Source of the DNA: a bacterium
Lineage (GTDB): Bacteria; Bdellovibrionota_C; UBA2361; SZUA-149; JAEUWB01
Reading direction: 5' to 3'
DNA: 30,443 nt
Assembly: GCA_016786595.1 (NCBI GenBank)
Contig: JAEUWB010000033.1
Coordinates: 1-30,443 of the forward strand
Under the pieces are notes generated by a model. The model saw only the letters and a program-made list of their open reading frames with translations, was not told the DNA's origin and made no database searches. Below are positions 6,074 to 30,443 of the stretch, in pieces. Numbering within the stretch: the stretch's first letter is position 1; the number at the start of each line of letters is the position of its first letter. Made by a program: the position numbers and the translations under genes.

Positions 6074-6084
6074 GGAAACATCTT

Positions 6085-6117
6085 GAGCTGCAATTAGGTT
6101 CTCCTTTTTTGCAGCTC
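6085..6117 (+). terminator. putative lon terminator hairpin (9-bp stem GAGCTGCAA/TTGCAGCTC, 15-nt loop)
   Basis: A perfect inverted repeat lies 12 nt after the lon stop codon. The loop is longer than a canonical terminator loop, and a T-run sits inside the loop rather than after the stem. Confidence 0.3.
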
Positions 6118-6254
6118 AACTAGGGAAGCACTGATTAACTGCAATCTTGGCTAAGATCTTCTACCAAATCAGCTTCGACTGACACCTTGTTACAGTAGAT
6201 TTATGCAAGCCTTGTTTTTGCAATAATGTGCGGCGGCCTAATTAACTAATTAAT

Positions 6255-6435
6255 TATCTGTCATTACGAAGGAGCGAAGCGCCTGCGGCAATCTGTTTGC
6301 GTTTCCTGTCATTGTGAGGAACAACGTGACCTATTCGACTTGCTCAAGGCAGGCTCCGCAATCTGTTCACCGGTAAACAATACTTTCTCGTGCTAAGTGA
6401 ACAGATTGCTTCACTTCGTTCGCAATGACCCGAGA
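6255..6435. repeat. nested inverted/direct repeat cluster (candidate structured RNA or small degenerate element)
   Basis: A perfect 13-bp inverted repeat GCAATCTGTTCAC (6358-6370) / GTGAACAGATTGC (6397-6409) encloses about 26 nt. A third direct copy CGGCAATCTGTTTGCG lies at 6286-6301. The imperfect outer arms are GTCATTACGAAGGAGCGAAG (6259-6278) and CTTCACTTCGTTCGCAATGAC (6410-6430), with a partial direct copy CCTGTCATTGTGAGGAACAAC at 6305-6325. Confidence 0.4.
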
Positions 6436-6554
6436 CGCATGGAAAATACCTATCTCCTACCTATTTAAATCCTAAAAAATCCCTAATAAATTCTAGTAGT
6501 TTACAAAAATTTAACGAAATGATTTAACAACGAGCTTCCGCTAGTTGGTTATTT

Positions 6555-6780
6555 CTTCTCCTACGGAGAAGGTTAACAGCTGGGGAGCATCAGCCTACAG
6601 AATTCCTTGTTTTGCCTGGCGGCAAAACGATGTAAGGCCGATGCAGAAAATTTATGGGCGGTTAGCACTTCTCCTGCTGAGAAGGTTAACAGCTGGGGAG
6701 CATCAGCCTACAGAATTCCTTGTTTTGCCTGGCGGCAAAACGATGTAAGGCCGATGCAGAAAATTTATGGGCGGTTAGCT
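6555..6780 (+). repeat. tandem 113-bp repeat (two copies) of the tRNA-Val leader plus the first 11 nt of the tRNA
   Basis: Copy 1 (6555-6667) and copy 2 (6668-6780) are nearly identical. Each ends in GGGCGGTTAGC, the 5' end of tRNA-Val. Copy 1 is a truncated pseudo-start and copy 2 runs into the intact tRNA. Each unit contains a perfect hairpin GTTTTGCC-TGGC-GGCAAAAC nested inside GCATCAGCC...GGCCGATGC, and a D-arm-like segment AGCTGGGGAGCATCAGCC. Confidence 0.85.
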
Positions 6781-6844
6781 CAGCTGGGAGAGCATCGGCC
6801 TTACAAGCCGAGGGTCGCAGGTTCGAGCCCTGCACCGCCCACCA
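6769..6844 (+). tRNA. tRNA-Val (anticodon TAC), CCA encoded
   Basis: The sequence is GGGCGGTTAGCTCAGCTGGGAGAGCATCGGCCTTACAAGCCGAGGGTCGCAGGTTCGAGCCCTGCACCGCCCACCA. The acceptor GGGCGGT/ACCGCCC pairs perfectly, the anticodon loop is CTTACAA, and the T-loop is TTCGAGC. Confidence 0.92.
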
Positions 6845-6873
6845 CTTACTTTTTCCCCAAAAAGAAAAAGTAA
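6845..6873 (+). terminator. hairpin after tRNA-Val (CTTACTTTTT...AAAAAGTAA)
   Basis: TTACTTTTT pairs with AAAAAGTAA around a C/A-rich loop. It has the same CTTACTTTTT...AAAGAAAAAGTAA architecture as the hairpin after tRNA-Ala at 23861-23894. Confidence 0.45.
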
Positions 6874-6927
6874 AACGAATTTTGATTGCCTGACAAAATT
6901 CGCTATAACCAACAGGCATTTGGCATA

Positions 6928-7125
6928 GGGGGTGCCCACTAGTGGGAGTAAGTAGTTCAGTTGGTTACTGAGTTACTGGCTGAGCTAAAGCTCAGCATGC
7001 CGGCCTGTCCTAGCGACAAAGTCGCTAGCAAACAAGCAAAGCTTGTTTGGTCGGAGGTCGCAGCCGTCAGCACATAGTGCTGACAAAATAACTGGGTGAG
7101 TCCCGTCCGCCTGAAAGCGGGGTCA
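6928..7125 (+). ncRNA. tRNA-Asp paralogue interrupted by five short perfect-hairpin insertions (disrupted tRNA or tRNA-scaffolded structured RNA)
   Basis: It has the same 17-nt leader (CAGGCATTTGGCATAGGG) as the intact tRNA-Asp downstream. tRNA-Asp segments appear in order: GGGGGTG, GTAGTTCAGTTGGTTA, GCCGGCCTGTCC (GTC anticodon kept), TCGGAGGTCGC, TGAGTCCCGTCCGCC, GGGG. Between them are insertions, each a perfect stem-loop: CCCACT/AGTGGG; CTGAGC-TAAA-GCTCAG; TAGCGAC-AAA-GTCGCTA plus CAAACAAGC-AAA-GCTTGTTTG; GTCAGCAC-ATA-GTGCTGAC; CCGC-CTGAAA-GCGG. Confidence 0.6.
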
Positions 7126-7155
7126 TCGGAAAATAATTTCAGGCATTTGGCATAG

Positions 7156-7232
<77 letters not shown>

Positions 7233-7240
7233 ATTTTTTA

Positions 7241-7337
7241 GATGAATTGCGAGCACGGGACTCGAACCCCGTGCAAGCGGAGCGAGCACAAAGGGAACTG
7301 CGAGTCAGTTGCTGCTTTGCAGCAACGCCCGTCCGCC
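7241..7337. repeat. tRNA-derived debris: inverted tRNA T-arm/acceptor fragment plus a direct repeat of the tRNA-Asp 3' end
   Basis: TTGCGAGCACGGGACTCGAACCCCGTGC (7247-7274) is the reverse complement of a tRNA T-arm GCACGGGGTTCGAGTCCCGTGCTCGCAA. GCCCGTCCGCCCCGCCA (7317-7333) repeats the last 17 nt of tRNA-Asp (7216-7232). It is preceded by the hairpin GTTGCTGC-TT-TGCAGCAAC. Confidence 0.7.
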
Positions 7338-7466
7338 CCGCCAATTTTTCTCATTTCTCCTAGAGTAGAAGTATTTTTCCATCACGTTATTAGCTCAAGT
7401 AGTTACCAACGTGTTGGTGCATGAGAACTTAGGTTTTTAGTGTTCACTCGTTTTTAGGAGGAAACA

Positions 7467-8108
7467 ATGGCAAATTACAAATGGCCCGAGGATTACAAGG
7501 GCTTTGTTGAAGCCATTGTTTTAAACCCGAGCCCAAAAATTTTTCACACTATCGTAGGTCATTTCTTTGAAGAGTCTGCAGCTGCCTTGTGGAGGATTAC
7601 GGACTTGCTGTTGCAGGATCCAAATTGCATTTCCGAAGTGGGTGACTTGTCAGAATTCAAGCTGGCTCAAGCTGAGCACACGCGTGTTTGCTATGAGTGG
7701 AAAATGATTGGAGCTAAAAGCGCTCCATACATCTATCTCAGACGTAGCATGAATGCGCTTGTTAATGGCGAGTCGATTGAAAACGGCCCGGTCTTAGAAG
7801 TCATACTTTGTCGTTTAACTTCAGGAGAGCATGCGAACTCCGTCGTTATTCAAGTTGGCTGGACGCTAAGCGATCGCCGCCGCGCCTTGTCTTGGTTGCA
7901 GGCGCATCGATTAGCAATTGCTTTAGGCCTCGTAATTAGTCCAAGCGACTTTGAAAAGGTGCAAGAACTTAGAGCTGGATGGTCCAGGGATGCTCAGATT
8001 GCGGTTGTTCGCGCATGGGAAAGACATCAGCTAGGTAGCGAGGTCTTTTTTGTGGTTTGCGACAATCATGAGCATTTTAATAACTCAGAAGTGGGTATAT
8101 CGAGATAG
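7467..8108 (+). CDS. hypothetical protein (no recognisable motif)
   Basis: A 213-aa ORF with an AGGAGG RBS 7 nt upstream. It lies immediately 3' of the tRNA-Asp duplication. Confidence 0.6.
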   Translation: MANYKWPEDYKGFVEAIVLNPSPKIFHTIVGHFFEESAAALWRITDLLLQDPNCISEVGDLSEFKLAQAEHTRVCYEWKMIGAKSAPYIYLRRSMNALVNGESIENGPVLEVILCRLTSGEHANSVVIQVGWTLSDRRRALSWLQAHRLAIALGLVISPSDFEKVQELRAGWSRDAQIAVVRAWERHQLGSEVFFVVCDNHEHFNNSEVGISR

Positions 8109-8215: not shown

Positions 8216-8653
8216 TTACTGACTCATCATGCCCATGATCCGATCGGCAAGTTCTTTCGGATCGTGATGATGGGGGAAGAGGCCCATTGACTGAGTCAAT
8301 TCGTAAACAAGCTGCGCTCCCATTCCAGCCTTCCTTTCTTCTGGTCCTGCAATCAGCACAAGCACATCATTGGCAGCAGCAAGGGGTGCGATTTTTGTTC
8401 TAAACTCCTCGCACGTCGTCCAAGTGTTGGGCTTGACCGTCACCACCGTGAGCTTGCCGTGTTCAACCGCACTTGGATCAAAATCCTCAAATGCGATTGG
8501 CCCGACATTGGGAATGCCTTCTTGCAAGAGTCGCATTCCTTCTTGTAGGAACCGATCCTGTTCAGTTGGCTCACCTTCGGGATGTTCTTGCTCCTTGAGC
8601 GTGTCGAAAGGGGCAAGAATGACGACGAGTGTTTGTGGTTTTGGTTCTGACAT
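8216..8653 (-). CDS. hypothetical protein, small Rossmann-like alpha/beta fold suspected
   Basis: A 145-aa ORF. Hydrophobic beta-strand-like segments (LVVILAPFD, VLVLIAGPEE) suggest a small nucleotide-binding-type fold. No motif is firm enough to name a family. Confidence 0.55.
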   Translation of the reverse strand: MSEPKPQTLVVILAPFDTLKEQEHPEGEPTEQDRFLQEGMRLLQEGIPNVGPIAFEDFDPSAVEHGKLTVVTVKPNTWTTCEEFRTKIAPLAAANDVLVLIAGPEERKAGMGAQLVYELTQSMGLFPHHHDPKELADRIMGMMSQ

Positions 8654-8872: not shown

Positions 8873-9178
8873 CTAGTCTTGATTTTTGGTCTCTAACATG
8901 CGCGTTGCTGGGACTCCTTTCTTAACAAAAAGATGACCAAACATTGGATCTTGCTTCCCGTTGCGGATGAAGACGCCTAAGTCGCTGACAACTGGCATGA
9001 CTTGAGCGTTCATTTGCATGCGAGCCCTTTCCGATGCATCAAGTTGAGCCTTGAGTGCTGCAGTAGAAGTTCCAAGGACTCCAACTGTAACGCTCAGGAT
9101 AGTGACAAGACAAACGAGGCCAACAACAAGCCAATCACGACGACGAGAATAAGGCTGAACTACGGTAGAATCTTCCAT
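8873..9178 (-). CDS. small single-pass membrane protein
   Basis: A 101-aa ORF with one predicted transmembrane helix (WLVVGLVCLVTILSVTVGVLG) after a short basic N-terminus (RRRD). The ATG is preceded by GGAGAAG at a 7-nt spacing. Confidence 0.65.
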   Translation of the reverse strand: MEDSTVVQPYSRRRDWLVVGLVCLVTILSVTVGVLGTSTAALKAQLDASERARMQMNAQVMPVVSDLGVFIRNGKQDPMFGHLFVKKGVPATRMLETKNQD

Positions 9179-23787: not shown

Positions 23788-23860
<73 letters not shown>

Positions 23861-23894
23861 CTTACTTTTTCTTTCGCGAGAAAGAAAAAGTAAG
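23861..23894 (+). terminator. perfect 15-bp hairpin with GCGA tetraloop directly after tRNA-Ala
   Basis: CTTACTTTTTCTTTC-GCGA-GAAAGAAAAAGTAAG is a perfect 15-bp stem. It has the same 5' arm motif (CTTACTTTTT) as the hairpin after tRNA-Val. Confidence 0.55.
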
Positions 23895-24222
23895 CAAAAA
23901 GAAAGCGGTAGGCTTTCTTTTTGTAACTTTGCATGTTGTGCGTGAGCACGACAAAAGAATTCTGTGCGGAGAAGAAAGGTTGGACCAAAGAAAACGGTTA
24001 GTTTTCTTTGGGGTTACTTTTCCGTCGAGCTTTAGCTCGACCAATAATACTGCGCGAGAAAGCAGCGTTAGCTGGACCTATTCCATGAAAGGACTAGGTC
24101 ATGTAAGCAAAAAGAAAGCGGTAGGCTTTCTTTTTGTAACTTTGCATGTTGTGCGTGAGCACGACAAAAGAATTCTGTGCGAAAAAGAAAGGTTGGACCA
24201 AAGAAAACGGCAAGTTTTCTTT
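23890..24222 (+). repeat. two ~120-bp direct repeats (23890-24011 and 24103-24222, period 213 bp), each carrying three perfect hairpins
   Basis: The two copies are near-identical, each starting GTAAGCAAAAAGAAAGCGGTAGGCTTTCTTTTTGTAACTTTGCATGTTGTGCGTGAGCACGACAAAAGAATTCTGTGCG. The three hairpins are AAAGAAAGC-GGTAG-GCTTTCTTT, GTGC-GTGA-GCAC, and CCAAAGAAAAC-GGTTA-GTTTTCTTTGG (the last 11 bp perfect). A GTCGAGC-TTTA-GCTCGAC hairpin lies between the copies. It is not a CRISPR array: two copies, 120-nt units, no spacer regularity. Confidence 0.8.
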
Positions 24223-24227
24223 CACCC

Positions 24228-24302
24228 CTTAGGCTTGCACTTGAACTTAACCTTAACCTTGAACTAAAGAAGTTCAAGGTTAAGTATGAGTTCAAGCCTA
24301 AG
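24228..24302. mobile_element. MITE-like 75-bp element, copy B (TIR CTTAGGCTTG... / ...TTCAAGCCTAAG), with internal 13-bp perfect hairpin
   Basis: It is homologous to 18180-18253. The internal hairpin is CTTAACCTTGAAC-TAAAGAA-GTTCAAGGTTAAG. It sits between the tRNA-Ala repeat block and the 3' end of the minus-strand SPFH gene. Confidence 0.55.

Positions 24303-28920: not shown

Positions 28921-30443
<1,523 letters not shown>

Follow-up and report, generated by a model that had tools for sequence, protein, structure and literature searches.

How does a tRNA gene come to carry the sequence of its intact neighbor without a single substitution and to be interrupted, again and again, by perfectly paired hairpins? 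This question is raised by contig JAEUWB010000033.1, a complete contig of 30,443 bp from a metagenome-assembled genome (MAG) of a Bdellovibrionota bacterium, which we analyzed over its whole length and refer to as the window. The gene order tig-clpP-clpX-lon is followed there by a 1.4-kb non-coding stretch (6074-7466), in which ARAGORN and Rfam find no tRNAs beyond an intact tRNA-Val(TAC) and an intact tRNA-Asp(GTC), and between these two lies the interrupted tRNA-Asp copy. We estimate at about 60% the probability that this copy is a young, non-functional duplicate of the gene and its leader, remodeled by template-switch or fold-back inverted duplications at a tRNA hotspot common to the clade.

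A tRNA-Asp copy in pieces

The presence of a second tRNA-Asp copy with the same leader upstream of the intact gene, on which the original prediction was built, is borne out by both a repeat search and an alignment. The copy spans 6929-7111, with an offset of 227 nt instead of 228, and the shared upstream stretch is a 22-nt repeat (6913-6934, identical to 7140-7161) that comprises a 16-nt leader and tRNA-Asp positions 1-6, rather than a 17-nt leader. It then continues as five collinear blocks of the intact tRNA (Table 1), which are identical to it at 91/91 aligned columns, with an alignment score of 134.8 compared to 45 ± 5.5 in shuffles. All tRNA segments had been thought to be present; this is right for the order and identity of the blocks but not for their completeness, as the D-stem 3' strand has lost GAAC (GCAT is found instead), the anticodon loop A-C, the T-loop TC, and the 3' end CCGCCA.

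The inserts between the blocks were also largely as predicted. The first three measure 17, 31, and 40 nt, whereas the fourth consists of 32 nt accompanied by a 2-nt deletion, and what had been counted as a fifth insertion is a replaced 3' end. The copy holds four perfect hairpins (stems of 8-9 bp, loops of 2-3 nt), plus one loop-less 12-nt palindrome, but the CCGC/GCGG stem, previously listed among the perfect mini-hairpins, has just 4 bp. Perfect hairpins of at least 8 bp are frequent contig-wide (22, compared to 2.1 ± 1.2 in shuffles), and the four in the copy, within 198 nt, compare with approximately 0.014 expected. We agree with the earlier view that random (point) decay is unable to produce such a structure.

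Several of the inserts contain recognizable neighboring sequence. An 11-bp hairpin with two G.U pairs (6951-6961 / 6967-6977), missing from the original prediction, is made of a D-arm segment and its own inverted copy, which opens insert 2. The perfect 8-bp hairpin in the same insert (6979-6996) has a left arm (6979-6988) that is the reverse complement of tRNA-Val positions 7-16 (6775-6784). Insert 3 is formed by two abutting perfect hairpins, CTAGCGAC-AAA-GTCGCTAG (7010-7028, 8 bp) and CAAACAAGC-AAA-GCTTGTTTG (7029-7049, 9 bp). Insert 4, which sits at the same break point as in the copies of relatives, includes the perfect hairpin GTCAGCAC-ATA-GTGCTGAC (7066-7084, 8 bp) and, beside it, CTGACAAAAT, an exact copy of the native leader at 6890-6899. 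In insert 1, TAGTGGGAG resembles, by eye, a diverged copy of TAGGGGGTG, its inverted complement just before it, and the replaced 3' end includes GCGGGG (7117-7122), which corresponds to tRNA positions 70-75 in reverse complement.

Table 1 Features of the tRNA-Val/tRNA-Asp region (positions in the window; tRNA positions are those of the intact genes)
Feature	Position	Strand	Basis
Two tandem 113-nt partial tRNA-Val units upstream of tRNA-Val	6547-6772	+	repeat search, alignment
Intact tRNA-Val(TAC)	6769-6844	+	ARAGORN, Rfam
Candidate sigma-70-like promoter, TTGATT-16 nt-TATAAC, ending ~5 nt before the repeated leader	6881-6908	+	by eye
Leader (16 nt) and tRNA-Asp positions 1-6	6913-6934	+	repeat search; identical to 7140-7161
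Insert 1, 17 nt, with loop-less palindrome CCCACT/AGTGGG (6935-6946)	6935-6951	+	hairpin search
tRNA-Asp positions 7-22 (D-stem 5' strand, D-loop), 100% identical	6952-6967	+	alignment
Insert 2, 31 nt, in place of GAAC	6968-6998	+	alignment, hairpin search
tRNA-Asp positions 27-37 (anticodon stem 5' strand, CTGTC, including the GTC anticodon)	6999-7009	+	alignment
Insert 3, 40 nt, in place of anticodon-loop A-C	7010-7049	+	alignment, hairpin search
tRNA-Asp positions 40-51	7050-7061	+	alignment
Insert 4, 32 nt, at the variable loop/T-stem boundary	7062-7093	+	alignment
tRNA-Asp positions 52-55 (7094-7097) and 58-71 (7098-7111); T-loop TC absent, acceptor 3' strand partial	7094-7111	+	alignment
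Replaced 3' end with short hairpin CCGC-CTGAAA-GCGG	7112-7139	+	sequence, alignment
Leader repeat (7140-7155) and intact tRNA-Asp(GTC) (7156-7232)	7140-7232	+	ARAGORN, Rfam
Perfect 15-nt inverted copy of the tRNA-Asp T-arm (positions 52-66), 33 nt past the original	7255-7269	-	repeat search
Perfect hairpin GTTGCTGC-TTT-GCAGCAAC	7308-7326	+	hairpin search
22-nt direct repeat of the tRNA-Asp 3' end and ATTTTT	7328-7349	+	repeat search

The copy cannot mature into a tRNA. It lacks a complete D-stem, a 7-nt anticodon loop, the T-loop TTC, and a 7-bp acceptor stem with its 3' end. Rfam shows no tRNA, intron, or other family over 6928-7139, either at the gathering threshold (29 bits for tRNA, RF00005) or at E ≤ 10, and ARAGORN makes no call on the full copy or on the joined blocks (62-69 nt), with or without its intron options, because GAAC, A-C, TC, and the 3' CCGCCA are missing. 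These results also bear on the multi-intron-like tRNA offered in the original prediction, in which the pieces would be spliced or assembled into a working tRNA-Asp. The blocks are indeed collinear and include the anticodon, and one insert lies in the anticodon loop, but removing the inserts restores no tRNA. Self-splicing introns are, moreover, far longer than these inserts of 17-40 nt, and at E ≤ 10 Rfam matches neither a group I nor any other intron family. The bulge-helix-bulge endonuclease is not known from bacteria. The resemblance to archaeal multi-intron and split tRNAs, which also have several interruptions, some of them non-canonical, with inserts that form helices, stops at the outcome: those pieces join to a complete tRNA through bulge-helix-bulge borders and a dedicated endonuclease, whereas the pieces here make no tRNA and the host is a bacterium. 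We regard a split or multi-intron tRNA as extremely improbable.

The copy is nonetheless probably transcribed, as a long leader of tRNA-Asp, because the sole plausible promoter lies upstream of it and no terminator is predicted inside it. The candidate promoter (Table 1) was recognized by eye; a promoter tool under a stricter rule, requiring T at position 6 of the -10 element, called no site. A pre-tRNA-Asp made from this promoter would have a hairpin-rich 5' leader of approximately 240 nt, which RNase P would then cut off.

Inverted tRNA pieces at the locus and in related genomes

The tRNA-Asp copy is one of several rearranged tRNA pieces at this locus. The two 113-nt units upstream of tRNA-Val are 96% identical to each other, and each is made up of a leader, Val positions 1-11, an inserted hairpin (CTTCTCC-TAC-GGAGAAG, which has degraded in the second unit), positions 13-35 in decayed form, and the perfect hairpin GTTTTGCC-TGGC-GGCAAAAC. 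In both units, 14 nt of the Val anticodon arm (positions 24-37), whose original lies at 6792-6805, recur as a perfect inverted copy, at 6631-6644 and 6744-6757. The decay in these units amounts to a broken hairpin, two indels, and one substitution. On the other side of the intact tRNA-Asp gene, the trailer contains an inverted T-arm copy, a further perfect hairpin, and a direct repeat of the tRNA 3' end (Table 1). The antisense copies of tRNA arms (14-15 nt, all perfect) each lie 33-34 nt from a direct copy, giving an order of direct, inverted, and direct pieces that is seen three times at the locus, and they match the intact tRNAs perfectly and the decayed copies imperfectly.

To place these structures in context, we compared regions downstream of lon fetched by means of Lon proteins (91 loci in all, with L numbers below). 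The closest Lon proteins are 74-83% identical and belong to MAGs labeled Bdellovibrionota, Bdellovibrionales, or Oligoflexia; the clade compared here comprises about eight related Bdellovibrionota genomes with Lon proteins 80-83% identical. A scan of genome contigs covered 80 loci, only three of them from the clade. Metagenome scans for any tRNA-Asp with inserts in both the D-loop and the anticodon loop, and for the leader and 5' end of the copy of this lineage, gave no match.

Interrupted or truncated copies of tRNA-Asp or tRNA-Val occur at the same locus in three of the approximately eight related genomes (L083, L085, and L088), and they are 95-100% identical to the intact tRNAs of their own genome. 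In L083 (GCA_964505555.1), the intact tRNA-Asp is followed by a copy comprising positions 7-47, a filler of approximately 78 nt with two perfect 8-bp hairpins, and positions 52-77 with ATTTTT. L085 (GCA_046328905.1, a 3.26-Mb contig) has approximately 2.5 tandem Asp units of 224-258 nt upstream of the intact gene, each built from the leader, positions 1-50 (100% identity), 75 nt of filler, positions 52-66, and a tail in which the acceptor 3' strand recurs as its reverse complement. An additional insert of 34 nt, which contains positions 61-70 in reverse complement, interrupts the D-loop of the second of these units; tRNA positions 67-73 likewise occur in reverse complement in L085. L088 (from ENA, a 322-kb contig) carries 2.5 units of about 187 nt, made of Val positions 1-47 and 140 nt of hairpins, and an Asp copy whose positions 1-47 lead into hairpins and a reverse-complement copy of positions 43-57. 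A plain Val-Asp pair is found in L001, L087, and L089/L090, and L089 has in addition a decayed fragment of the Asp anticodon arm.

In all four genomes with a copy, the window included, tRNA-Asp breaks after position 47-51; position 52 is where the copy starts again in the window, L083, and L085, that of L088 being truncated at the break. The fillers of different genomes have no similarity to one another outside tRNA sequence. Partial copies accompany 7/21 tRNAs in the clade (one of the seven being a chance 13-nt match), compared to 0/32 in the Lon loci outside it. A process of birth and decay of tRNA copies acts on tRNA-Val in the window and on both genes in related Bdellovibrionota. We read the Asp copy as a young stage of this series, the Val units as an older one, and the L089 fragment as a remnant, an ordering suggested by their degree of sequence decay.

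A separate feature of the relatives is a long hairpin of 125-145 nt that begins at the CCA of tRNA-Val in L083 (6732-6856), L088 (6692-6836), and L089 (6177-6320). Its arms differ by genome and its apex is conserved (CGGTGCTC, a small hairpin, and TCCGCTCC); both sides have changed in 24/50 of the predicted pairs. It is absent from the window and from Rfam.

Proposed template switching and its alternatives

We infer the following molecular mechanism. A segment starting just past the promoter, either from the leader to mid-tRNA or the whole gene, would have been duplicated in tandem, and the redundant upstream copy would then have been reshaped by short inverted duplications. In each of these events, a nascent DNA end would fold back or switch strand, copy a few bases as their reverse complement, and return, which would give a perfect stem in one step; the stem-loops of the tRNA gene (D-arm, anticodon arm, and T-arm) would be natural sites for folding back. 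Support comes from new sequence that is the reverse complement of sequence nearby, in the Val units, the Asp trailer, the 11-bp D-arm hairpin, and the tail of the copy, and likewise in L085 and L088. That several hairpins appear to be built from inverted neighboring tRNA or leader sequence points to template switching rather than to incoming elements. The copy is judged young because there are no substitutions in 91 tRNA-derived bases and the four perfect stems, 33 bp together, contain no mismatches. Gene conversion seems an unlikely cause of this identity, as the blocks are just 11-22 nt long and lie amid long heterologies.

Other observations weigh against this mechanism. Local templates account for 84/148 inserted bases, compared to 49 ± 12 in shuffles; for approximately 45%, among them the first arms of three hairpins (those at 7010, 7029, and 7066), no template could be detected, either within 1 kb or elsewhere in the contig, and the 10-nt local matches found for two arms are only marginally above chance. 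Local templates of hairpin arms amount to three independent cases among about 12 hairpins, which is suggestive at most. The absence of point substitutions after at least five indel events requires a burst or a single complex event, and a common break point in genomes whose Lon proteins are about 80% identical could mean selection or a site-specific enzyme. There is also no close relative from which to reconstruct the ancestral state.

Template switching yields perfect stems in a single event (PMC8794818), and fold-back synthesis at breaks gives rise to inverted duplications of 5-34 bp (PMC11724301). The described cases (PMC8794818, PMC5453318, PMC11724301) share with our locus the one-step perfect stems, the inversion of adjacent sequence, the direct-inverted-direct order, and the short loops, but they are known mainly from eukaryotic genomes, from rRNA or microRNA, or from laboratory selection, and they differ from the locus in that no template is identified for half of the bases inserted here. 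We found no published precedent in the literature for such a structure, in line with the original prediction, which knew of none in bacteria. The proposed fold-back synthesis can be regarded as a small-scale form of tandem-inversion duplication, a model of Kugelberg and Roth that reportedly predicts direct-inverted-direct joins which are trimmed later. We know of no natural bacterial tRNA copy with at least five template-switch events, recurrent across a clade. A comparable arrangement is that of the rtT repeats of the Escherichia coli tyrT operon (RF00391), which are tandem units beside a tRNA gene, each with part of the tRNA, co-transcribed with it, and attributed to unequal recombination. 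In kind, the two 113-nt Val units and the 227-nt Asp unit form a similar arrangement, as do the Val units of L088 and the Asp units of L085. The rtT units, however, hold only the 3' 19 nt and lie downstream, whereas the units here contain the leader with the 5' part or the whole interrupted gene, inverted fragments, and perfect mini-hairpins. The RtT model itself scores 15.5 bits, compared to a gathering score of 45 bits, with the match lying over tRNA-Val itself, and the units are not members of that family.

The inserts could instead have come from outside the locus. Tiny palindromic mobile elements, such as repetitive extragenic palindromes (REP/REPIN), miniature inverted-repeat transposable elements (MITEs), or cyanobacterial small dispersed repeats, might have inserted repeatedly into a dead tRNA copy, as the original prediction had considered. 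It described the anatomy well, and the likeness to such short palindromic inserts in non-coding DNA, at times nested (PMC3116915), is real: the inserts are discrete and hairpin-shaped, some abut or nest, every loop is closed by 5'-C...G-3', and a 12-nt palindromic core, GAGCTAAAGCTC, is common to the hairpins at 6979-6996 and 24024-24041. Those repeats are, however, families of near-identical copies spread through a genome (PMC3116915), whereas the hairpins here all differ in sequence and each of the four matches only itself in the 30-kb contig with up to three mismatches allowed. The GCTGAGCTAAAGCTCAGC hairpin has no copy in the 91 loci, nor the other three in IMG/VR, which speaks against generic REP or MITE insertion. 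No target-site duplications are seen at the inserts, the open reading frames (ORFs) of the window contain no Pfam domains of transposases, RAYT, or IS200/605, and 18-21 nt is below the size of known mobile elements. On the sequence available, which from this genome is the 30-kb contig, we consider mobile elements improbable, the hairpins being better explained by inverted neighboring sequence than by dispersal. Scars of site-specific island integration and imprecise excision at the tRNA-Asp T-arm, with the fillers as remnants of element ends, seem improbable to much the same degree, if not a little more so. The common break at the 5' edge of the T-stem and the resumption at position 52 would fit, as would the direct repeats of the tRNA 3' end, which reach 6 nt beyond the CCA (22 nt in the window, 32 nt in L083) and look like the att-site duplications that tyrosine integrases reportedly produce at tRNA genes (Williams 2002). 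Integrase duplications, though, comprise the 3' part only and leave an island with its integrase gene. The copies here extend over the leader and the 5' two-thirds of the tRNA, and no integrase duplication yields such a product; the inverted tRNA fragments would be left unexplained, and no T-arm site would cover the inserts at positions 6/7, 22, 37, and 71. There is no island, and no integrase gene is present in the window or among the Pfam-matched called genes flanking the relatives.

Selection for a structured RNA is the alternative to which we give more weight, although we still judge it unlikely. The hairpin-decorated, tRNA-derived module and the antisense segments would then be a selected part of the pre-tRNA, which could serve the folding, the processing by RNase P or RNase E, or the stability of tRNA-Val and tRNA-Asp, or act as a leader-derived small RNA or decoy. 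Copies are found at the same locus in four of about eight deeply diverged clade genomes, where neutral DNA should be deleted; neither the tRNA blocks nor the stems contain a mismatch, the antisense segments match the intact tRNAs perfectly and the decayed copies imperfectly, the copy has no internal terminator, and on the + strand the two mismatches of the 11-bp hairpin become G.U pairs. Against this, the filler sequence, the number of hairpins, the number of copies, and the side of the intact gene on which they lie vary between genomes, four clade genomes have no copy at all, Rfam holds no matching family and at permissive thresholds yields nothing beyond tRNAs and noise, and differences between units break stems without compensation (in the second Val unit, and by a T-to-G change in L085). 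The + strand folds more stably than the - strand in 9/10 regions, but this strand is G-rich, and since the fold z-scores of the copy are equal on the two strands (-4.6 on + and -5.1 on -), we take the bias to be compositional and have dropped it as evidence for an RNA. Evidence for RNA-level selection is weak. Slightly less probable still, in our estimation, is the wider idea that the tRNA-Val/tRNA-Asp operon of the clade carries maintained leader modules, derived from tRNA, decorated with hairpins, and including perfect antisense-to-tRNA segments, for tRNA maturation or as a tRNA-mimic RNA, or that the clade has its own hairpin-inserting activity directed by tRNA structure. An artefact of metagenome assembly, finally, we hold to be very improbable. 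The window comes from one MAG contig, for which there is no second sample, and related short-read contigs (L086, L091, and L003) often stop just past lon or tRNA-Val, but the same type of structure recurs in four assemblies that are independent of one another, among them contigs of 3.26 Mb and 322 kb, and unique perfect hairpins of 18-21 nt inside contigs are not invented by assemblers. Readings as an anticodon-nuclease decoy, a primer-binding site, a retron, an integron attC site, or a CRISPR were dropped, as the window has no associated gene or motif.

If the copy is indeed a duplicate remodeled by template switching, the locus would preserve, with unusual clarity, a natural record of how template-switch or fold-back mutagenesis proceeds in a bacterium, with perfect RNA-type hairpins built in single steps inside a structured RNA gene. 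This record would cover young (the Asp copy), older (the Val units), and decayed (the L089 fragment) stages in several lineages. It would bear on the origin of new helices and expansion segments in structured RNAs and explain why tRNA genes behave as hotspots of rearrangement at which metagenome assemblies break. If selected instead, the modules would represent a new type of cis element, or of leader-derived RNA, in tRNA operons.

Neighboring genes and other repeats

The genes 3' of tRNA-Asp are different in each relative, so that tRNA-Asp marks a synteny break. In the window, the three ORFs adjoining it, 7467-8108 (+), 8216-8653 (-), and 8873-9178 (-), have no Pfam match. The short-read contigs of the clade members L086, L091, and L003 stop no more than 150 nt past lon or tRNA-Val, that of L091 at 66 nt past lon, which is consistent with assemblies broken by repeats at this place.

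Other repeats occur in the window. Between lon and the Val units, 6260-6440 contains nested inverted repeats, for example GCAATCTGTTCAC / GTGAACAGATTGC and TGTCATTGTGA / TCGCAATGAC, with motifs of the type GTCATTGCGA...AGCAATC and no family match in Rfam; this motif type may be a widespread short palindromic repeat. Right after tRNA-Ala, 23861-24300 holds a cluster of seven perfect hairpins of 8-15 bp and a direct repeat of approximately 125 nt at a spacing of 213 nt (23895-24011 and 24108-24222). Related hairpins starting with CCA-CTTACTTTTTC follow tRNA-Val (6842-6873) and tRNA-Ala (23859-23894), and the two tRNA genes therefore share a 3' flank.

At the far end of the window, an ORF (28930-30443) that runs off the contig has a signal-peptide-like start and a lysine-rich stretch, followed by more than 400 residues of collagen-like Gly-Ala-Thr or Gly-X-Thr triplets, which account for the GC content of 0.58 and the AT skew of 0.51 across this region.

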